In this document: piece after piece, positions 1 to 7,043 of the stretch
Layout of the letters: each line of letters opens with the position of its first letter
Numbering within the stretch: position 1 is the stretch's first letter
IMG/VR virus record: IMGVR_UViG_2529292919_000020
DNA: 15,934 bases
Strand: one strand, 5' to 3'
Origin: a virus
Taxonomy: Duplodnaviria > Heunggongvirae > Uroviricota > Caudoviricetes
Translations under genes and position numbers: made by a program
Notes under the pieces: generated by a model
What the model saw: the letters and a program-made list of their open reading frames with translations, nothing else
What the model was told of the DNA's origin: nothing
Database searches by the model: none

Positions 1-1230
1 ATGAGCAGAGCACTTAACAAACTGAGCGATACACAGCTGAGGAAAATCAACGGCACACCCGCCCAAAAAACAGCCTTTCTTAATGACGGTGGAAACCTGA
101 GCGTCAGGCATTCAACCAGCGGCCTTTTAACCTGGTATTTCACTTACAGGGCCGGAACGGGAAGGGGGGCACCACCGGAACGCATTAAGCTGGGAAATTA
201 TCCTGATCTGAGCCTGAAATCAGCCAGGGAAAAAGCCGCCCAGTGTCGCGCATGGCTGGCTGAGGGGAAAAATCCACGTCATGAGATGAATTACACCGTA
301 CAGGAAGCGTTAAAGCCGGTAACGGTTGGCGATGCGCTCACCTACTGGCTTGAGTCGTACGCAAAGGAAAACCGTGTAGATTATGACCCACTGAAAAAGC
401 GGCTAAATAATCACGTAATACAGCACATTGGCTCTATGCCGCTGGATAAATGCGAGCTACGGCACTGGCTGGCCTGTTTTGATCGGGTGGCAAAGCAAGC
501 CCCTGTTTCCGCCGGGTTCCTGCTACAGACATGCAAACAGGCGCTTAAGTTCTGCCGGAAGCGGCGCTATGCAATCAGCAACGTTCTTGATGATATGAGT
601 GTGGCTGACGTTGGGAAAAAACCGGATATAAGCGAACGTGTCTTAAGCAATAAAGAACTGGGCGAATTATTGCAGACACTGGACAAAAAAATATTTTCCC
701 CTTACTACGTCGCACTAATCCGCCTCCTGATTGTTTTCGGATGCCGGACAGTAGAACTGAGATTATCGGAGATCGGCGAGTGGGATTTTACCGAAATGCT
801 CTGGACTGTTCCGAAGGAGCACAGCAAAACGAAGGTAGCCATATTCCGGCCCATACCGGAAGCGATACTGCCGTTCGTCACGCAGCTGGTGGAGCAGAAC
901 AGGCACACGGGCTTATTGCTGGGGGAAGTGAAACAGGAAACCAGCGTATCGCAGTACGGCAGATTGGTGCACAGGAGGCTTAAACACCCTCACTGGTCAT
1001 TGCATGACATCCGGCGCACCTTTACAACGATGCTGAACGATTTAGGCGTGGATCCTCACGTCGTGGAGCAGCTTACAGGACACCAGATGCCAGGGATGCA
1101 ACGAGTCTATAATCACTCCCGTTATCTGGATGCGAAACGCAATGCGCTGGATATGTGGACGGAGCGGTTAGGGATACTGGCGGGAGCACATGAAAACGTA
1201 ACCACGCTATCAGTAGCCAGAAGAAAATAA
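1..1230 (+). CDS. int: Tyrosine recombinase / integrase, P4-type (N-terminal arm-binding-like domain plus C-terminal catalytic domain)
   Basis: 409-aa ORF starting at ATG at position 1. The N-terminus (LSDTQLRKI...NDGGNLSVRHS...TWYFTYR...LGNYPDLSLKSAREKA) resembles the arm-DNA-binding domain of P4-like integrases. The C-terminus carries the tyrosine-recombinase signature (HDIRRTF...LTGHQ...RVYNHSRY). The ORF begins exactly at the window edge, so an upstream extension and attL cannot be assessed. Confidence 0.9.
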   Translation: MSRALNKLSDTQLRKINGTPAQKTAFLNDGGNLSVRHSTSGLLTWYFTYRAGTGRGAPPERIKLGNYPDLSLKSAREKAAQCRAWLAEGKNPRHEMNYTVQEALKPVTVGDALTYWLESYAKENRVDYDPLKKRLNNHVIQHIGSMPLDKCELRHWLACFDRVAKQAPVSAGFLLQTCKQALKFCRKRRYAISNVLDDMSVADVGKKPDISERVLSNKELGELLQTLDKKIFSPYYVALIRLLIVFGCRTVELRLSEIGEWDFTEMLWTVPKEHSKTKVAIFRPIPEAILPFVTQLVEQNRHTGLLLGEVKQETSVSQYGRLVHRRLKHPHWSLHDIRRTFTTMLNDLGVDPHVVEQLTGHQMPGMQRVYNHSRYLDAKRNALDMWTERLGILAGAHENVTTLSVARRK

Positions 1231-1286
1231 TTTTTTTCGTGTTTTTTCAGTATGCGCATACTGGATAAGCACACAGATACAACGGC

Positions 1287-1322
1287 GAACAATGTGAAAC
1301 AACGTGGAACAACCACGAACAA
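1287..1322. promoter_or_regulatory. Four GAACAA units phased at exactly 10 bp (starts 1287, 1297, 1307, 1317): candidate binding array for an AlpA/Xis-type or integrase arm-binding protein
   Basis: Direct reading: cGAACAAtgtGAAACAAcgtgGAACAAccacGAACAAg. The reverse complement shares 18 identical nt with 7335..7352 and with 14335..14352. Position is between the int stop and the alpA start. Confidence 0.5.
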
Positions 1323-1605
1323 GAGGCGAAAAAGCACACAGGTTTATAAGTGACTGATTTTATTTGTATGACTGGTTTTTTATACATTAGCGAATAACGC
1401 TTTAACGCGTGAGAAAAAAGGCGTAAAACGAGATTTTATGCCTTTGTATTAATATGAATTTAAATGATTTTATCCTGATTGTTCCTCTTTCTGTAAACCA
1501 TACGGACTCAACATTTGCCAACGCTGAATCATCCTGACACAATCAGACACAACCCAACCCAATAACCCACCCAATGACTCTTTAAGAAACAACAAAGGGG
1601 GAATT

Positions 1606-1794
1606 GTGTTAAGCACAGATCGCTTTATACGTGAAAAAGAATGTCAGCAACTTACAGGCCTGAGCCGCTCATGTCGGTATCGCCTGGAGAAGACTGGACA
1701 ATTCCCATCACGGCGTAAACTCGGCGGTCGTTCCGTTGGCTGGTCTTTATCCGAAGTTCTGGCATGGAAGGACAGCCGCGAGGCAGTTCACTAA
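1606..1794 (+). CDS. alpA: AlpA-family (Xis/Vis-like winged-helix) transcriptional regulator
   Basis: 62-aa ORF with GTG start preceded by a strong Shine-Dalgarno (AAGGGGGAA). The motif ...CQQLTGLSRSCRYRLEKTGQFPSRRKLGGRSVGWSLSEVLAW... matches the AlpA pattern (L-TGLSRST-YRL---G-FP-P-KLG-R-V-W---EV--W). Confidence 0.85.
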   Translation: MLSTDRFIREKECQQLTGLSRSCRYRLEKTGQFPSRRKLGGRSVGWSLSEVLAWKDSREAVH

Positions 1795-2057
1795 TCAGGC
1801 TGGCGGCGCACCGCCGCCACCCATCCACTAACACAGAGATCTAACCATGAATACTGGATATACGCCCGAACAGGGGCGGGGCTTCGTTCGTCCTGGTGAA
1901 ACTAAAAAGCCATGTTATCGGGTATTTTCAGGCATAAAAAAAGCGGCCCCGATAAGGAACCGCCTTTCGGAACAATTAACCTGCTGCGAAAAAAATGGAT
2001 CAGTGCAGGGGAATTATATCAACCGTGTGGCGAAGCGCCACAATTGCCGGATAACAG

Positions 2058-2088
2058 GCAAAACAAAGGCGACCGCAAAAGGGTCGCC
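2058..2088 (-). terminator. Rho-independent terminator for the leftward small-gene pair
   Basis: Perfect 7-bp stem GGCGACC/GGTCGCC (2068..2074 and 2082..2088) with a 7-nt loop. On the minus strand it is followed by TTTGTTTTG. It lies about 67 bp downstream of the minus-strand ORF ending at 2155. Confidence 0.5.
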
Positions 2089-2154
2089 AGTGGGAACAAG
2101 GGAAAACAAAAGCATCACCAACAATGCCACATTTGCGGCTGGTGGGCAATGCAA

Positions 2155-2343
2155 TCAGTCTGGTTCAGTTCGTTGCCATACCTGCAATGAGCGCTTTTCC
2201 CTGTACTCTTTAAGGAATTGCTCAAGGGCAAAAGCACATGGCGCGAATCTTTCTGATTCATGCTCTATCTTTCTGCGTCGTCTTTTCCGTGTCGGTGATA
2301 ATGTTTTGGTCAATTCTTTATCGGTCATTGTGTTGTCCTGCAT
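2155..2343 (-). CDS. Hypothetical small basic protein (57-62 aa), second gene of the leftward pair
   Basis: ORF-track ORF (MQDNTMTDKELTKTLSPTRKRRRRKIEHESERF...). An AGGA lies 8 nt upstream of the second in-frame ATG, so the true start may be at 2328. It sits 42 bp downstream of the RHH-like ORF on the same strand. No recognisable family. Confidence 0.4.
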   Translation of the reverse strand: MQDNTMTDKELTKTLSPTRKRRRRKIEHESERFAPCAFALEQFLKEYREKRSLQVWQRTEPD

Positions 2344-2385
2344 AGCAATGCGCCGTAATACCTTACACCACGGCGCTGGTGATGG

Positions 2386-2565
2386 TTATTCCTGCTCTTT
2401 GGCCTTGCGACGCTGGCGGTATTCAACTTCTCGCTTTAATGCTGCTGTTACAAACTGCCCTGTACTTTCACCAGGCATTTTTACCGCCTCAACATTGTTC
2501 ATAACTTCATGCGGAACCCTTGCCGCAACTGTTTGTGATTTTGCGTTTACTGCTTTTGTTGCCAT
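2386..2565 (-). CDS. Ribbon-helix-helix-like DNA-binding protein (59 aa), candidate repressor of the divergent promoter region; not in the supplied ORF track
   Basis: Hand-translated minus-strand ORF: MATKAVNAKSQTVAARVPHEVMNNVEAVKMPGESTGQFVTAALKREVEYRQRRKAKEQE. An SD-like GGGG lies about 10 nt upstream of the ATG. The layout (N-terminal beta strand TVAARVP, helix, G-x-S/T turn, second helix) is typical of Arc/MetJ/CopG RHH proteins. It is 59 aa, so it falls below the apparent 60-aa cutoff of the track. Confidence 0.5.
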   Translation of the reverse strand: MATKAVNAKSQTVAARVPHEVMNNVEAVKMPGESTGQFVTAALKREVEYRQRRKAKEQE

Positions 2566-2613
2566 GTTGTGTACCCCTTACAAAAAACAAATGCAGTATG
2601 CAGGAAAAAAATA

Positions 2614-2667
2614 AGTGTTCAACACTTGACGTGTTTAATACCAGGGCTTAAATTGGTGTTCAACACC
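2614..2667. promoter_or_regulatory. Divergent promoter/operator region: two identical 11-bp near-palindromic operators GTGTTCAACAC (2615..2625 and 2656..2666) overlapping back-to-back sigma70-like promoters
   Basis: Rightward promoter: TTGACG (2626..2631), 17 bp, TAAATT (2649..2654). Leftward promoter on the minus strand: TTGAAC (complement of 2658..2663), 17 bp, TATTAA (complement of 2635..2640). The operators are 41 bp apart centre to centre and overlap the -35 elements. The region sits between the minus-strand RHH-like gene and the plus-strand small-ORF/replication operon. Confidence 0.45.
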
Positions 2668-2763
2668 TTACTAATGCAAGGTGCAGAAACGACGAAACCC
2701 GGCAGTGCGCTAACACTAACCGGGCTTCTAACCACCAACGATAGAAAGCGTATCGAGGTAGCT

Positions 2764-2970
2764 ATGAGAAATTATACCAGACACCCGCAAGGGCGGGACT
2801 CGTACAACCTGAATAAATACATCTGGCGTTTTATCGCCCTGAGCACGGCACAACCGCGCGTGATTACCATTGAGGCCACCAGCGAACAGGAAGCGCGTCA
2901 GCAATCTCCTGATGGCTGCGTGATGGTATTCGCTGCCCGTATTCGCCAGGGGGAAACCTATGCACAATAA
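2764..2970 (+). CDS. Small protein (68 aa), possibly of the Icd-like (P4 host cell-division inhibitor) family; family assignment is from memory only
   Basis: In-frame ATG at 2764 with GAGG 6 nt upstream. The track ORF 2569..2970 has earlier ATGs without an RBS. Sequence MRNYTRHPQGRDSYNLNKYIWRFIALSTAQPRVITIEATSEQEARQQ...VFAARIRQGETYAQ. First gene of the rightward operon downstream of the operator region. Confidence 0.5.
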   Translation: MRNYTRHPQGRDSYNLNKYIWRFIALSTAQPRVITIEATSEQEARQQSPDGCVMVFAARIRQGETYAQ

Positions 2971-3196
2971 AACCACACCGGACGCAGCCGCCGAAGCCAT
3001 CAAAACGCTGATGCACGCGCTGATTGATATTTCTGTTATCGCAGACAAGGCGCATAAGCACGCCACCAGCGAAACAGAATATGCCGGGGCTTTCGTTCCT
3101 CACTCACTGGCTCTTATGCAATTTAGTGCTGATATGGCGCTGAATGAGGCAGGCAAAATTCTTACCGCAGATATTCAGGGGGTGCACCATGCATGA
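2960..3196 (+). CDS. Hypothetical protein (78 aa)
   Basis: ATG at 2960 overlaps the upstream gene by 11 nt, with AGGGGGAA as SD. Part of a chain of overlapping small ORFs. No recognisable motif. Confidence 0.5.
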   Translation: MHNKTTPDAAAEAIKTLMHALIDISVIADKAHKHATSETEYAGAFVPHSLALMQFSADMALNEAGKILTADIQGVHHA

Positions 3197-3416
3197 TGAC
3201 CGTTATCTTAAATCAATGAGCCATGCAGAAAACGCACTGACTAACAGTGAATGTTTGAGGCAAATATTTCTTATCTGGCTTGATGGTTTAAGTGATGAGC
3301 CGGAAGATGAGCGTGAGTCTAATCTTGCTGGTGCGTTTATTTCATTACTCGATACGGTAATCGTCGAATTAAATAAAGCGATCGAAATTCACGATAAAAA
3401 AATAAACGCGGAATAA
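3189..3416 (+). CDS. Hypothetical acidic protein (75 aa)
   Basis: ATG at 3189 with AGGGGG SD. Preferred over the track start at 3144, which lacks an RBS. Overlaps the stop of the preceding ORF (3194..3196). Confidence 0.5.
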   Translation: MHDDRYLKSMSHAENALTNSECLRQIFLIWLDGLSDEPEDERESNLAGAFISLLDTVIVELNKAIEIHDKKINAE

Positions 3417-3421
3417 AAACC

Positions 3422-3709
3422 ATGAAAAATAAAAATTCTGGCTTTACTGCCAGCGGCCCCGCTCGGCCTGAAATCCGCCCCGGCGATATTTTCCGGGATA
3501 ACTATGGCGGCACGGTAACGATAAAAGGCGTGGCAGAACGGCGCATCACTTACCGCCGTGATGGCTACGAATATGACTGCGTGATGCCTGTTTATCAGTT
3601 CCGGCGTGATTTCACGCTGGTGGGCCATCGTAAAGCCGTAAATCAGAAACGTGCAGCAAGTCATATCCGCAAAATTCGTGAAATGCTGGTCGCAGGGGGT
3701 AAAAAATGA
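3422..3709 (+). CDS. Hypothetical basic protein (95 aa), translationally coupled to the replication initiator
   Basis: ORF-track ORF. Its stop overlaps the start of the downstream gene in an ATGA arrangement (3706..3709). Confidence 0.55.
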   Translation: MKNKNSGFTASGPARPEIRPGDIFRDNYGGTVTIKGVAERRITYRRDGYEYDCVMPVYQFRRDFTLVGHRKAVNQKRAASHIRKIREMLVAGGKK

Positions 3710-5520
3710 AACTGGCACCGAACGTAAAACAGCAGTTACGCGGCATAAAACACAAAGAAACAGAAGTCATTATTTTTGCGGGTAGTGATGCCTGGTCACA
3801 CGCAAAACAATGGCAGGAACATGACGCGCGTATGGCCGGAGATAATGAGCCTCCTGTGTGGCTTGGGGAGCAGCAGTTATCCGAACTGGATAAGCTGCAA
3901 ATTGTGCCGGAAGGCAGAAAATCCGTGCGCATATTCAGGGCCGGATATCTTGCGCCAGTAATGATAAAGGCGATTGGTCAGAAGCTGGCGGCGGCAGGCG
4001 TACAGGATGCAAATTTTTATCCTGAGGGTATGCACGGCCAGGAGGTGCAGAACTGGCGCGAATATCTGGCCCGTGAGCGCCAGAATCTTTCTGATGGTCT
4101 GGTGATTCAGCTTCCTGTTAAGAAAAAAACAGAAGACAGCGCCGCACCACTGGCGCTTAACCAGATGGGAGCAAGCCAGCGCGGCGAAGTTCTCCTGGCA
4201 CATTATGGCGGTGAACTGGCGATTCATGCCGACTCTGACACTGTTCACCATTACAACGGCGTTGTATGGGAGCCGATTCAGGATAAAGAGTTACAGCGTG
4301 CTATGGCGCAGATTTTCATTGATGCGGAGATCAGCTATTCGCAGAACGCCATTAAATCGGCGGTCGATACCATGAAGTTAAGTTTGCCTGTAATGGGGAA
4401 TACAGCCCGTAACCTGATTGGATTCAGTAACGGGGTATTTGATACCAGAACAGGTAATTTTCGGGAGCATAACAAAAACGACTGGTTGTTAATTGCCAGT
4501 GAATTACCTTTCAGCCCACCAGCAGAGGGGGAAACGCTGGCAACACATGCGCCGAATTTCTGGAAGTGGTTACGCCGCTCGGTGGCAGAGAATGACCGCA
4601 AGACGGATCGCGTGCTGGCTGCATTATTCATGGTGCTGGCGAACCGGTACGACTGGCAGTTATTCATTGAGGTAACAGGTCCAGGGGGAAGTGGTAAAAG
4701 CGTGATGGCGGAGATTTGCACCATGCTGGCGGGTAAGGCCAACACAGTATCGGCAAGCATGAAGGCGCTGGAAGATGCAAGGGAACGCGCGTTAGTGGTT
4801 GGCTTTTCGCTGATTATCATGCCGGATATGACCCGCTACGCTGGTGATGGCGCAGGAATTAAGGCCATTACAGGCGGTGACAAGGTGGCAATCGACCCGA
4901 AGCATAAAGCCCCCTACTCAACACGCATTCAGGCGGTCGTGCTGGCGGTGAACAATAACGCCATGTCATTCAGTGACCGCAGCGGGGGGATCTCACGTCG
5001 TCGGGTGATATTCAATTTTTCGGAGGTTGTACCGGAGAACGAGCGCGACCCCATGCTGGCAGAAAAAATAGAAGGAGAGCTGGCGGTTGTGATTCGCCAT
5101 CTGCTTACTCGTTTTTCTGACCAGGACGAAGCTAAACGCCTGCTGTATGAGCAGCAGAAATCAGAAGAAGCTCTGGTGATAAAACGCGAGGGCGATTCGC
5201 TGGTGGACTTCTGTGGCTATCTCATGTCGTCGGTAATGTGTGATGGTCTGTTAGTGGGTAATGCCGAAATTATTCCGTTCAGTCCGCGCAGGTATCTTTA
5301 TCACGCCTATCTGGCATATATGAGGGCACACGGATTCGGTAAACCTGTAACACTGACGCGCTTCGGTAAAGATATGCCGGGGGCAATGGCGGAATATGGC
5401 AGGGAGTATATAAAACGGAAAACGAAGCACGGTTTGCGTTCAAATGTGACACTGACAGAGGATTCAGAAGACTGGATGCCATCATGTGCATCGGTCACAA
5501 ATGACGACAGCAAAAATTAA
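3706..5520 (+). CDS. Replication initiator (pri-rep) with P4-alpha-like C-terminal SF3 helicase / origin-binding region; N-terminal ~200 aa of unassigned family
   Basis: 604-aa ORF with strong SD (CAGGGGG). Walker A GPGGSGKS, followed by a region resembling the phage/plasmid primase P4-family C-terminal (D5-like) helicase domain. Sits immediately upstream of an iteron array. Confidence 0.85.
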   Translation: MKLAPNVKQQLRGIKHKETEVIIFAGSDAWSHAKQWQEHDARMAGDNEPPVWLGEQQLSELDKLQIVPEGRKSVRIFRAGYLAPVMIKAIGQKLAAAGVQDANFYPEGMHGQEVQNWREYLARERQNLSDGLVIQLPVKKKTEDSAAPLALNQMGASQRGEVLLAHYGGELAIHADSDTVHHYNGVVWEPIQDKELQRAMAQIFIDAEISYSQNAIKSAVDTMKLSLPVMGNTARNLIGFSNGVFDTRTGNFREHNKNDWLLIASELPFSPPAEGETLATHAPNFWKWLRRSVAENDRKTDRVLAALFMVLANRYDWQLFIEVTGPGGSGKSVMAEICTMLAGKANTVSASMKALEDARERALVVGFSLIIMPDMTRYAGDGAGIKAITGGDKVAIDPKHKAPYSTRIQAVVLAVNNNAMSFSDRSGGISRRRVIFNFSEVVPENERDPMLAEKIEGELAVVIRHLLTRFSDQDEAKRLLYEQQKSEEALVIKREGDSLVDFCGYLMSSVMCDGLLVGNAEIIPFSPRRYLYHAYLAYMRAHGFGKPVTLTRFGKDMPGAMAEYGREYIKRKTKHGLRSNVTLTEDSEDWMPSCASVTNDDSKN

Positions 5521-6512: not shown

Positions 6513-7043
6513 ATGACAACGCTGACCATTAACCGGAAGCCGAAAGGCATTTACGGCACGCCGCAGAAAACGACGCAGGCGGCGCAAGAGCAGGATAAAA
6601 CCACATCGGCGCATAAAGTGATACCCGGCAATCAGAACGCACAGCAGAAGCCCACAGGGGCGACACCGTGGCAGCATATGACCAAAAGGCAGCGCAAAAA
6701 CCGCCGACGCGTTAACCGCCTCACTGAGATGTGGCCTGACTTATTCAGCCATAAAGCACCGAAGCCGCTTAAGGTGGGGATATTCGACGACCTGATGCAG
6801 GATATCGCCGTCAGGGGGCTGGCATTCGGGCCGGGGGTATTACGTGCGACGCTGGCATCCTATGCGCAGTCTCCGCGCTATTACCGCGCCCTGATAGCTG
6901 GTGGCGCACGTTACGACCTGAAAGGCCAGCCATGTGGGGAAGTGACACCACAGGAACAGCAGGAGGCAGAAACACGGCTGATGGTGCTGAATGAGAAGCA
7001 CAAGCGCCAGCGCCGGGCAGCAAAGGGGGATACATGCCAGTGA
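6513..7043 (+). CDS. ProQ/FinO-domain RNA-binding protein
   Basis: 176 aa with strong SD (GGGGAAGG). ...WPDLFSHKAPKPLKVGIFDDLMQDIA...LRATLASYAQSPRYYRALIAGGARYDLKGQPCGEVTPQEQQEA matches the ProQ N-terminal / FinO fold signature (PLKIGIF-DL ... LR-AL--Y--S-RY ... R-DL-G-PCGE). Confidence 0.8.
   Translation: MTTLTINRKPKGIYGTPQKTTQAAQEQDKTTSAHKVIPGNQNAQQKPTGATPWQHMTKRQRKNRRRVNRLTEMWPDLFSHKAPKPLKVGIFDDLMQDIAVRGLAFGPGVLRATLASYAQSPRYYRALIAGGARYDLKGQPCGEVTPQEQQEAETRLMVLNEKHKRQRRAAKGDTCQ

Follow-up and report, generated by a model that had tools for sequence, protein, structure and literature searches.

The stretch of DNA analysed here (the window; 15,934 nucleotides) is a capsid-forming PICI (cf-PICI), with Pfam matches to int, alpA, primase-replicase, capsid, protease, portal, connector, TerS and TerL, and with no tail or lysis gene among its ORFs of at least 70 aa. 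The cf-PICIs of Enterobacterales carry their own capsid genes, have no tail or lysis genes and are about 15 kb long (10.1101/2022.09.08.507074). In an E. coli locus that is nearly identical, the left junction adjoins roxA; the window itself ends in a gene resembling phoQ.

The gene for AlpA, the published activator of Gram-negative PICIs (1606..1794, plus strand; PF05930, E 2.7e-18), is convergent with a gene encoding a 59-aa protein of the YlcI/YnfO family, a predicted ribbon-helix-helix (RHH) repressor (2386..2565, minus strand). The latter has an ATG start and a GGGG Shine-Dalgarno sequence 8 nt upstream. Downstream of it, and probably co-transcribed with it, lies a 62-aa ORF (2155..2343, minus strand; phrog_21027, E 1.5e-15), a homologue of which is annotated in CFT073 as a 57-aa CDS. 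In the opposite direction, the early operon begins with an icd-like gene (host cell division inhibitor-like; 2764..2970, plus strand), identified by NCBIfam NF033153 (70.3 bits) and by RefSeq annotation. The original prediction described the 59-aa gene as unlisted. It is missing from the ORF list solely through the size cutoff; the gene is genuine and conserved, and public records already contain it, the RefSeq entry for the identical protein being WP_000201462.1, ‘YlcI/YnfO family protein’, with no function given. A full-text search of the literature likewise returned no function assigned to the YlcI/YnfO family.

Predicted promoters and candidate operators of the control region

The rightward, early promoter is TTGACG (2626-2631)-17-TAAATT (2649-2654), spanning 2626..2654 on the plus strand with a predicted start near 2661; an independent consensus scan picked the same hexamers as the original prediction. 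Behind it lie the icd-like gene, small ORFs, a DUF4222 gene and the primase-replicase gene (pri-rep). The promoter was recovered in 20 of the 23 scanned loci, with TTGACG or a TTGAAN variant as the -35 element, a spacer of 17-18 nt and a TAnnnT -10 element; two of the remaining three have no -35 match, and in the third (L037) the wrong hexamer was picked.

The leftward promoter of the repressor gene calls for revision. The hexamers proposed originally, TTGAAC (2663..2658)-17-TATTAA (2640..2635), are present on the minus strand (2635..2663), but they match the consensus at 8 of 12 positions, their -10 element has no T as its sixth base, and their TTGAAC is owed to the sequence of this particular operator type, being unavailable in the other specificity types described below. 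These hexamers would also lie face-to-face with the rightward promoter and overlap it, rather than back-to-back as described, and they are probably not the main promoter. A proximal candidate read from the sequence, TTGAAC (2622..2617)-16-CATACT (2600..2595), spanning 2595..2622 on the minus strand, is truly back-to-back with the rightward promoter. It too matches the consensus at 8 of 12 positions and is hence missing from the scan list, but its -10 element, (C/T)ATACT, keeps its spacing to the ATG in relatives, whatever their specificity type. The proximal promoter, with its -10 element at 2595-2600, is the better supported of the two. A leftward transcript would start near 2588 or 2628.

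The near-palindrome GTGTTCAACAC, of 5-1-5 layout, has only two exact copies in the 15,934 bases, at 2615-2625 and 2656-2666, 41 bp apart from centre to centre, as first described; a given 11-mer is expected about 0.008 times by chance (both strands, simple arithmetic). With up to two mismatches allowed, the window has 13 matches where 4.8 are expected, and 1 of 200 shuffles reached as many. The number of operators rises from two to three with a degenerate palindrome, GTGTTTAATAC, which has two mismatches and lies between the exact copies at 2631-2641.

Each site has a defined place relative to the promoters. Copy 1 (2615..2625) abuts the rightward -35 element and contains TTGAAC, the -35 element of the proximal leftward promoter, and is likely the autoregulatory site for the 59-aa gene. 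Copy 2 (2631..2641) runs from the last base of the rightward -35 element through the spacer. Copy 3 (2656..2666) begins 2 nt past the rightward -10 element and lies over the predicted transcription start. The proposed overlap of the exact copies with -35 hexamers thus holds on the leftward side only: on the rightward side copy 1 merely abuts the hexamer, and it is the degenerate copy that starts on its last base. A two-mismatch copy over the alpA start codon (GTGTTAAGCAC, 1606-1616) was considered as a fourth operator and rejected, because cognate sites in the relatives are confined to the intergenic region.

The same arrangement is found in the relatives, about 30 loci from at least 13 named genera of Enterobacterales, in which palindromes occupy conserved positions at -102, -77 and -32 from the ATG, with an additional site at -61 in the type to which the window belongs. 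Viewed rightward, one site in the relatives begins on the last -35 base and fills the spacer, and another lies 0-2 nt past the -10 element. Copy 3 is the counterpart of the conserved -102 site; copy 2 stands in the place of the -77 site, which most relatives have in perfect or nearly perfect form; copy 1 corresponds to the extra -61 site, which is also present in the L002 and L004 loci. A conserved site just after the repressor gene's own -10 element has been lost in the window. Since the middle site is degenerate and this last site is lost, regulation in the window may differ in detail from that in its relatives.

Predicted fold of the 59-aa protein and co-variation with the candidate operators

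The window protein scores 59.7 bits against the N-terminal YlcI/YnfO model of NCBIfam (NF041551; cutoff 30). It consists of a putative DNA-reading strand (residues 10-17), helix A (19-28), a G32-E-S-T35 turn and helix B (35-58), followed at the C-terminus by a basic tail and no extra domain. An N-terminal strand with two helices (beta-alpha-alpha) in about 45 residues is the layout of the RHH superfamily, and the turn has its Gly-x-Ser/Thr signature: G32, E33 and S34 are invariant among 32 homologues, and T35 is nearly so. The protein model matches Arc, Omega and CopG-type RHH proteins, with Arc among the two best structural matches; others include the RHH antitoxins TacA, VapB12, Rv0298 and HicB, and Omega- and TraM-type proteins.

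The sequence searches gave less. No Pfam RHH family matches the window protein at E <= 1, and a Pfam scan of this protein and the 32 homologues returned no RHH family and noise such as Med10; some family members have faint, sub-threshold matches to PSK_trans_fac, CB_ParB_C and HicB. A sequence-profile search of the PDB found nothing relevant. An hhalign comparison with ten classical RHH sequences gave the right register with a weak score (P = 0.026) and serves as a lead only: G32 and S34 align with G30 and S32 of Arc, positions 12 and 14 with Q9 and N11, and R16 with R13. The original proposal of an RHH-like layout finds no echo in Pfam families, while the model matches to Arc, Omega and CopG do predict a DNA-binding fold of this class. 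On the protein model, the 59-aa protein is an RHH protein; within the YlcI/YnfO family it belongs to an uncharacterised branch that is specific to satellites. Pfam DUF3950 (PF13132), which describes a C-terminal ‘NFSAWV’ helix, does not match the window protein, whereas the L029 variant from Klebsiella does (29.9 bits; cutoff 25).

Across the relatives, the operator sequence and residues 11-15 of the protein change together, and nine specificity types can be distinguished. Taking residues 10-16, SQT(V/L/I)AAR is found with GTGTTGAACAC, SQ(S/A)LK(S/A)R with GTGTGGCCCAC, S(K/R)KLEAR with GTGTCAGCCAC, SQK(L/V)Q(A/T)R with GTGGA(C/G)TCCAC, SKRFDVR with GTGTCGGACAC, SQSVTAR with GTGTAAGACAC, SQKMSAR with CTGGCACCCAG, SQKIQAR with CTGGATTCCAG and SAQKKIR with GTGTACCCCCA-like sites. 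At two alternate strand positions, 12 and 14, the residue is hypervariable and changes together with the inner 5 bp of the palindromes; R16 and the outer GTG/CAC hardly vary. Two predictions made from this relation held: the strand of the E. coli protein P0044 matches that of the Xenorhabdus proteins, and the three sites at its locus are likewise those of the Xenorhabdus loci; P0027 shares the C-terminal half of the window protein, but its strand and the sites at its locus are different. The 115 homologues contain 44 distinct strand heptads, and genomes with several islands occur, with up to 6 places per genome.

Between loci of the same type in different genera, identity at the site positions is 97-100% for four of the five pairs, compared with 59-73% for the rest of the region; in the fifth pair, the window and L003 of Pectobacterium, it is 85%. 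When different types are compared, identity at the site positions falls to 57-67%. Cognate sites (at most one mismatch) are restricted to the control region and occur nowhere else in 24 loci of 5-7 kb. As judged from these alignments, purifying selection acts on the operator sites. Co-variation between adjacent stretches of DNA can partly reflect linkage; linkage is unlikely to be the sole cause, since two to four copies change in concert and conservation extends across genera.

A predicted SymR-like RNA and the proposed control of the early operon

The same control region holds a second conserved element, which is absent from the original prediction: a predicted SymR-like antisense RNA (2683..2766, minus strand), about 80 nt long and folding into two helices. 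The loop of helix 1 carries an anti-Shine-Dalgarno sequence, and helix 2 with a U-rich tail resembles a terminator. In the icd-like gene, its predicted target, the RNA is antisense to the leader, the ribosome-binding site and the start codon. Rfam symR (RF01809) matches the window with 32.8 bits (E 0.001), short of the gathering score of 61, and this sub-threshold match was the only one at E <= 10 over positions 1200-3800. At gathering thresholds no Rfam family matches the whole window, including the C4/IsrK-type RNAs that would be expected upstream of an icd-like gene.

Structure and strand are established by comparison. An alignment of 25 loci supports 25 base pairs, 17 of them with compensatory changes, and 94.5% of cells are paired, compared with 36-48% when the partners are slid by 1-3 columns. 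The minus strand is favoured over the other (94.5% versus 80.1% paired), the assignment coming from G-U pairs (93 cells). A model built from the satellite RNAs finds the annotated symR of K-12 (33 bits, E 6e-6). The promoter, read from the sequence, has an extended -10 element, TGGTATAAT (2771..2779, minus strand), which falls within codons 3-6 of the icd-like gene; transcription is predicted to begin at 2765-2763, opposite the ATG at 2764. In relatives a TGG(G/T)TAnnnT element is kept at this place even where the overlapping coding sequence differs.

An RNA of this type beside a small RHH gene could suggest an addiction module, in which the 59-aa protein is an antitoxin, the toxin is the 62-aa ORF or the Icd-like protein, and the palindromes autoregulate the module alone and not replication. 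TacA, VapB12, Rv0298 and HicB are among the best structural matches, a small ORF is next on the same strand, and the neighbour carries the annotation of a cell-division inhibitor and is accompanied by a SymR-like RNA, SymR itself being annotated in K-12 as an RNA antitoxin. However, the gene at the position of the 62-aa ORF is not conserved, varying from 57 to 108 aa or being absent in relatives with the same repressor and operators, so this ORF is not an obligate partner. The 59-aa protein also has a basic tail in place of a C-terminal toxin-binding domain, and every relative has two sites within the core of the promoter from which the whole early operon, primase-replicase included, is transcribed. 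We consider an antitoxin role unlikely.

The structural matches to Omega and TraM-type RHH proteins, the weak sub-threshold matches to the C-terminal RHH family of ParB and the site spacings of 16, 25 and 41 bp could also fit a ParG/Omega-type protein that binds a centromere or origin, with the repeats as partition or replication iterons. There are, however, just two to four sites, always locked to the -35 element, spacer and +1 of a promoter; a ParA-type gene is absent from the window ORFs, with no Pfam match among the scanned predicted genes, and PICI origins are placed downstream of the replication genes (PMC6092414). Such a function seems highly unlikely.

AlpA could instead be the protein that binds the palindromes at the early promoter, and the 59-aa protein would then have no connection with them. 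AlpA is both necessary and sufficient to induce the prototype island and switches on island genes (PMC6092414), and the two-mismatch copy noted above overlaps the start codon of alpA itself. That copy has no counterpart in relatives, and sites in the spacer and over the start point have the geometry of a repressor. Operator type is, moreover, uncoupled from AlpA. The AlpA proteins of the window and CFT073 are 95% identical and their operators differ; the window and L033 are 90% identical in AlpA, and the window, CFT073 and L033 have three different operators. Conversely, operators and repressor in L002 are identical to those of the window, with an AlpA only 31% identical, and identical operators are found with AlpA identity down to 27%. 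On these comparisons the palindromes do not track AlpA, and AlpA is not their binder; a role as AlpA sites is scarcely credible. As for a chance or relic duplication beside an ORF of unrelated role, short two-copy repeats are common and promoter consensus matches in the region show no overall enrichment in the consensus scan, but the expectation of about 0.008 for an exact 11-mer per window, the conservation of position, symmetry and multiplicity across genera of Enterobacterales, and the joint switching of site sequence and protein effectively refute it at the comparative level.

The core of the original prediction, an RHH repressor with operators over divergent promoters, is thus supported by site placement, by co-variation and by the decoupling from AlpA. 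We put at roughly three in four the probability that the RHH protein binds the palindromes and silences the early operon in the integrated island, with the SymR-like RNA as a second lock. A dimer of the 59-aa protein would place a two-stranded sheet, formed by about residues 10-17, in the major groove of each palindrome (11 bp, 5-1-5). The outer GTG/CAC would be read by the invariant Arg16 together with the N-terminal arm, and the inner five base pairs by the hypervariable residues 11-15. As the three sites lie just upstream of the -35 element, in the spacer and over the start point, their occupancy should shut out RNA polymerase and so silence the early operon with its icd-like gene, small ORFs, DUF4222 gene and primase-replicase. 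Occupancy of 2615-2625, which covers the -35 element of the repressor promoter, would give negative autoregulation. The second, post-transcriptional lock would be the antisense RNA; made from a constitutive-looking extended -10 promoter, it would pair with the icd-like gene at its ribosome-binding site and start codon.

The repressor could in this way set quiescence versus induction of the island, as first proposed. Induction might override it through AlpA-driven upstream transcription that runs antisense through the repressor gene into the operon, or through a phage anti-repressor. The prototype island EcCICFT073 carries the same repressor-operator module; the tag of its repressor gene, C_RS30120, is high-numbered and out of series with its neighbours, which suggests that the gene was added after the original CFT073 annotation. 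Deletions of c1499 and c1500 in a 2018 paper were considered as a prior test of this gene and set aside, both being capsid-like genes. Over-expression of AlpA alone induces EcCICFT073 (PMC6092414), so the 59-aa protein is no insurmountable master lock. Protein and distant-DNA searches of 50,697 phage records found no homologue of the 59-aa protein or the module, which argues that the module was not borrowed from a sequenced phage.

More tentatively, and with something short of an even chance, the satellite branch of YlcI/YnfO may be the missing global repressor of Gram-negative PICIs and cf-PICIs, EcCICFT073 included, with immunity groups, override or bypass by AlpA and a second RNA lock. If so, strand and palindromes would define dozens of immunity groups, and several satellites could coexist in one cell without cross-repression; induction by helper phage would be AlpA-driven transcription overriding or bypassing the repressed promoter; and the SymR-like RNA, possibly helped by the island's ProQ/FinO protein (6513-7043), would be a second lock on a toxic first gene. 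The gene was already annotated as YlcI/YnfO family; the present analysis proposes a function for it and identifies its candidate operators and RNA, making the module a credible and testable candidate for the Gram-negative island repressor that published work failed to find. The at least nine matched strand-operator pairs are unusually good raw material for an RHH recognition code and for orthogonal repressors. The finding is also relevant to immunity and incompatibility among satellites, and to engineering PICI-based ‘antibacterial drones’ safely. A possible source of the orphan symER locus of K-12 is suggested by the SymR-like RNA.

Relation to known control systems

The members of the family in K-12, YlcI (in DLP12) and YnfO (in Qin), share with the window protein the NCBIfam N-terminal model and the strand-helix-turn-helix pattern. 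They differ from it in the DUF3950 match, which the window protein lacks; the L029 satellite variant from Klebsiella has the DUF3950 C-terminal half and the same architecture as the window. The K-12 ylcI gene adjoins nohD in a lambdoid prophage. It was considered as a further locus of this architecture and rejected, no SymR-like RNA being found there and no repeated palindromes being evident upstream on inspection.

Stl is a much larger helix-turn-helix protein, inactivated by binding a helper-phage protein; we know of no helper-phage partner for the 59-aa protein. The Stl/Rpr repressors of Gram-positive PICIs (SaPIs) are divergent from the excision/replication operon, near int, and hold the island quiescent (PMC6092414). 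The 59-aa gene is likewise divergent from the replication operon and beside int, and would keep its island quiescent, whereas published induction of Gram-negative islands runs through AlpA.

The antisense RNA is closest to SymR of the SymR/SymE locus of K-12. The two share their length, two-helix architecture and an apical GUGUU(A/G)GCGCAC; in both, the start adjoins the start codon of the target on the opposite strand, with a predicted cis-antisense action and a terminator-like 3′ hairpin, and the Rfam symR model matches the window as the satellite model matches K-12 symR. In contrast to SymR proper, the satellite RNA scores far under the gathering threshold (32.8 bits against 61), its target is Icd-like and not SymE, and it is embedded in a control region beside RHH operators. 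In the immI region of P1 and P7, the C4 antisense RNA controls icd and ant; as in the window, the first cistron is an icd-type gene with a small regulatory RNA over its translation start. C4 arises by processing of the transcript that also contains its target and acts at distant complementary sites, unlike the satellite RNA, which is a predicted cis-antisense transcript, and to our knowledge P1 immI has no RHH repressor.

The closest parallel for the whole arrangement is immI of P22, which has the RHH repressors Mnt and Arc, the divergent promoters Pant and Pmnt and the sar antisense RNA. In both, a small RHH gene is divergent from the operon that it represses (in the window, by prediction), symmetric operators lie inside closely apposed promoters, and an antisense RNA of about 70-80 nt covers a ribosome-binding site in the repressed operon. 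Sequence comparison detects no homology of the window protein to Arc or Mnt (P only 0.026), and the window has one repressor instead of two. P22 operators are of 21 bp or 17 bp, compared with 11-bp sites in two to four separated copies here. The P22 operon encodes an antirepressor and belongs to a phage, while that of the window encodes replication functions and belongs to a satellite.

The 59-residue protein and its place in the island

The window is a capsid-forming phage-inducible chromosomal island (cf-PICI) of the Escherichia coli type. An integrase gene (1-1230) is followed by alpA (1606-1794) and two small minus-strand genes, and then by a plus-strand operon running from an icd-like gene through two small ORFs, DUF4222, a D5-type primase-replicase (3706-5520), SSB and a ProQ/FinO protein to the major capsid, prohead protease, portal, connector, HNH, TerS and TerL genes. 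A phoQ-like gene lies at the window end, and roxA adjoins the 99.7% identical locus in E. coli WP8-S18-ESBL-07. The 701-bp region 2100-2800 has partial matches in 1528 of 5426 complete E. coli genomes, at no more than six places per genome. A 255-aa plus-strand ORF (1847-2614) spans both minus-strand genes and occupies part of the stretch that read-through from alpA would traverse; it is probably spurious, and in the RefSeq annotation of the near-identical locus (L001, 2748-3285) a portion of it appears as an incomplete pseudogene.

The 59-aa ORF on the minus strand (2386-2565), originally predicted to be a ribbon-helix-helix (RHH)-like gene, is real and conserved. An identical protein is present in RefSeq as ‘YlcI/YnfO family protein’; it matches NCBIfam NF041551 with 59.7 bits (cutoff 30) and phrog_949, a family of unknown function. 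The family is small: a word-indexed search of 5.8 billion sequences returned 74 homologues at E <= 0.001, and only 81 were found when 1.84 billion cluster representatives were searched with a full profile. Escherichia, Salmonella, Klebsiella, Pectobacterium, Serratia, Proteus and Xenorhabdus are among the sources, and every named source belongs to the Enterobacterales. On the function of YlcI, YnfO and DUF3950, full-text searches yielded gene lists only.

The AlphaFold2 monomer (pLDDT 81) consists of an extended N-terminus, a helix (19-28), a short turn and a second helix (35-58). Neither Foldseek nor a sequence-profile search identified relatives in the PDB. A profile-profile alignment with classical RHH sequences is weak (P = 0.026), yet it places R16-V-P18 over R13-W-P15 of Arc and G32-x-S34 over G30-x-S32. 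Across homologues the G-E-S-T turn is fully or almost fully conserved, and remote family members appear canonical. The RHH assignment is well supported by the predicted structure, while unproven by sequence statistics.

In K-12 DLP12 (L041, 6252-6446), the namesake YlcI, which has a canonical RHH-like sequence, is found beside nohD in a lambdoid prophage; a SymR-like RNA was not detected at this locus and operator repeats were not evident on inspection, so the YlcI/YnfO name covers at least two genomic contexts. One E. coli island (L033, 3354-3864) has an additional small RHH-like gene in tandem (VSTHKNERRGNPPFQFRLDPDL...), unrelated to the first, preceded by a hairpin of its own and associated with another palindrome (TGTGTATATACACA).

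Candidate operators and promoters

Two identical operators had been predicted, and both are present: GTGTTCAACAC occurs at 2615-2625 (site 1) and 2656-2666 (site 3), with no other exact copy in the window. They are accompanied by a third copy, GTGTTTAATAC (site 2, 2631-2641), which has two mismatches; the centre-to-centre spacings are 16, 25 and 41 bp. The predicted rightward promoter, TTGACG(2626)-17-TAAATT(2654), was found independently by a consensus scan. Site 1 therefore abuts its -35 element, site 2 starts on the last -35 base and fills the spacer, and site 3 starts two bases past the -10 and covers the expected start. The leftward promoter requires correction: the hexamers first proposed exist, but they score only 8/12, have no T as the sixth base of the -10, and would be face-to-face with the rightward promoter rather than back-to-back. 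A proximal candidate, TTGAAC(2622..2617)-16-CATACT(2600..2595), does have the back-to-back arrangement, and its -10 sits where all relatives have (C/T)ATACT.

Some 30 related loci were compared (31 from one-genome-per-species contigs, six by exact-protein look-up, and the CFT073 prototype), the contigs carrying at least 13 genus names. The upstream plan is fixed across loci. With the gene oriented forward, a hairpin whose tail is U-rich comes first, then sites at -102 and -77, the latter followed by GTCAA, which is complementary to the -35 TTGAC. Between this and the ATG lie, in order, an AT-rich stretch, the -10 (TATACT), another site at -32 and a Shine-Dalgarno sequence. Compared with most relatives, the window has lost the autoregulatory -32 site and has a weakened -77 site and an extra site at -61. 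In the opposite direction, 20 of the 23 loci scanned have TTGACG or a TTGAAN variant as -35, separated by a 17-18-nt spacer from a TAnnnT -10, and the rightward promoters of the relatives have one palindrome from the last -35 base and another 0-2 nt past the -10. This placement is repressor geometry.

Within types, site positions are 97-100% identical across genera in four of five pairs and 85% identical in the fifth (the window and Pectobacterium L003), compared with 59-73% for the rest of the 106-nt region; between types, identity at site positions falls to 57-67%. No cognate site with one mismatch or fewer was found elsewhere in 24 loci of 5-7 kb. In the window, GTGTTAAGCAC (1606-1616) overlaps the alpA GTG start and differs from the operator at two positions; since the relatives have cognate sites in the intergenic region only, this copy is probably due to chance.

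Co-variation of protein and operator

The palindrome sequence is not conserved between loci, and varies with protein residues 10-16, the strand heptad. SQT(V/L/I)AAR is paired with GTGTTGAACAC, SQ(S/A)LK(S/A)R with GTGTGGCCCAC, S(K/R)KLEAR with GTGTCAGCCAC, SQK(L/V)Q(A/T)R with GTGGA(C/G)TCCAC, SKRFDVR with GTGTCGGACAC, SQSVTAR with GTGTAAGACAC, SQKMSAR with CTGGCACCCAG, SQKIQAR with CTGGATTCCAG, and SAQKKIR with a GTGTACCCCCA-like site. The copies in one locus all switch in concert, retaining the 5-1-5 symmetry. Two predictions were checked after the rule had been formulated. The E. coli homologue P0044, 71% identical overall, has a Xenorhabdus-type strand; GTGTCAGCCAC was predicted, and three copies are present at its locus. 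The homologue P0027 combines the C-terminal half of the window's protein with another strand, and its locus has different sites, as predicted.

By analogy with Arc, positions 12, 14 and 16 would face the DNA. Of these, 12 and 14 are hypervariable, with 44 distinct heptads among 115 homologues, and R16 does not vary. The sites have a nearly constant outer GTG/CAC, with CTG/CAG in its place in the two types that have another N-terminal arm (MTRD...). Such a combination of variable and constant positions would be expected from direct read-out by the paired strand. The CFT073 locus (L039, 3501-3809) matches window 2111-2419 with 96% identity across the 62-aa ORF and the 3' end of the repressor gene, and diverges in the operators and the 5' portion of that gene, indicating that a recombination breakpoint inside the gene swaps a strand-plus-operator ‘specificity cassette’. 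P0027 has the same mosaic. Edwardsiella hoshinae (L002, 2501-2674) shares the window's repressor at 100% identity over 58 residues while its AlpA is only 31% identical, which fits the reported cross-genus spread and modular shuffling of cf-PICIs.

The possibility that the repressor and its neighbour form a toxin-antitoxin module is weakened by the variability of the downstream ORF (57-108 aa, or absent), which the sites do not track. Nor do they track the first early gene, Icd-like and Ash-family genes both occurring with the same operators, or the replicase type (D5-like, DUF927, AAA_25). A partition or origin role is unlikely, as the sites are locked to promoter elements and a ParA-type gene was not seen. 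AlpA is excluded as the palindrome binder because operator type is uncoupled from it: AlpA identity to the window is 95% in CFT073 and 90% in L033, yet the three elements have three different operators, and the divergent AlpA of L002 occurs with the window's operators.

An antisense RNA and the proposed switch

The original prediction missed a conserved structured RNA in the control region (2683-2766, minus strand), which has no RefSeq annotation. Rfam SymR matches 2691-2763 of this strand weakly (32.8 bits, E 0.001), below the Rfam membership threshold. The alignment of 25 loci (~83 nt) features two helices, with compensatory changes in 17 of 25 pairs; the paired fraction of cells is 94.5%, compared with 83% for shuffles and 36-48% after sliding the partners. 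On the strand opposite to the repressor's, pairing drops to 80.1%, a difference due to 93 G-U cells, indicating that the RNA is antisense to the early operon. From the perfect extended -10 element TGGTATAAT (2779..2771, minus strand), transcription would begin at 2765-2763, facing the ATG (2764) with which the icd-like gene starts. The RNA lies over the ribosome-binding site and start codon of this gene, with an anti-Shine-Dalgarno sequence in the loop of helix 1. A satellite-derived covariance model recovers the annotated symR of K-12 (33 bits, E 6e-6), with no other significant match in that 4-kb locus. Reciprocal search and architecture together indicate a SymR-like RNA, albeit one below Rfam's threshold.

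FinO is the partner of FinP; by analogy, the ProQ/FinO-family RNA chaperone of the island (6513-7043, plus strand; PF04352, E 1.2e-23) could be the partner of the antisense RNA. A ProQ/FinO-like protein has been described in a classical PICI of Enterobacter, strain AVS0889 (PMC13612085).

The control region combines an RHH-fold protein, palindromes inside the early promoter that co-vary with it, and a structured cis-antisense RNA gene over the initiation region of the first cistron. The original observation is confirmed overall and its interpretation as a repressor/operator module supported, with the corrections described. In the proposed mechanism, repressor dimers on sites 1-3 would exclude RNA polymerase from the rightward promoter, keeping the replication genes off; site 1 would also limit the repressor's own promoter, and the antisense RNA would block icd-like translation from any escaped transcript. 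According to published work, both EcCICFT073 and EcCIEDL933 need AlpA for their induction, and in the case of EcCICFT073 over-expressing AlpA is sufficient (PMC6092414, 10.1101/2022.09.08.507074). Since EcCICFT073 has the same module (C_RS30120 with GTGTGGCCCAC sites), the repressor cannot be an absolute lock. Speculatively, AlpA-driven upstream transcription may converge on the repressor gene and run through into the operon.

The module offers a concrete candidate answer to a stated open question on Gram-negative PICIs; the protein-operator types constitute a natural specificity series, and the analysis exposes a SymR-like RNA layer. No homologue of the module was found in 50,697 phage records. 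In P22, the immI region combines RHH repressors with apposed divergent promoters and the antisense RNA sar; in P1, immI has icd as an RNA-controlled first cistron. Belonging by sequence to neither, the module would work like a blend of the two.
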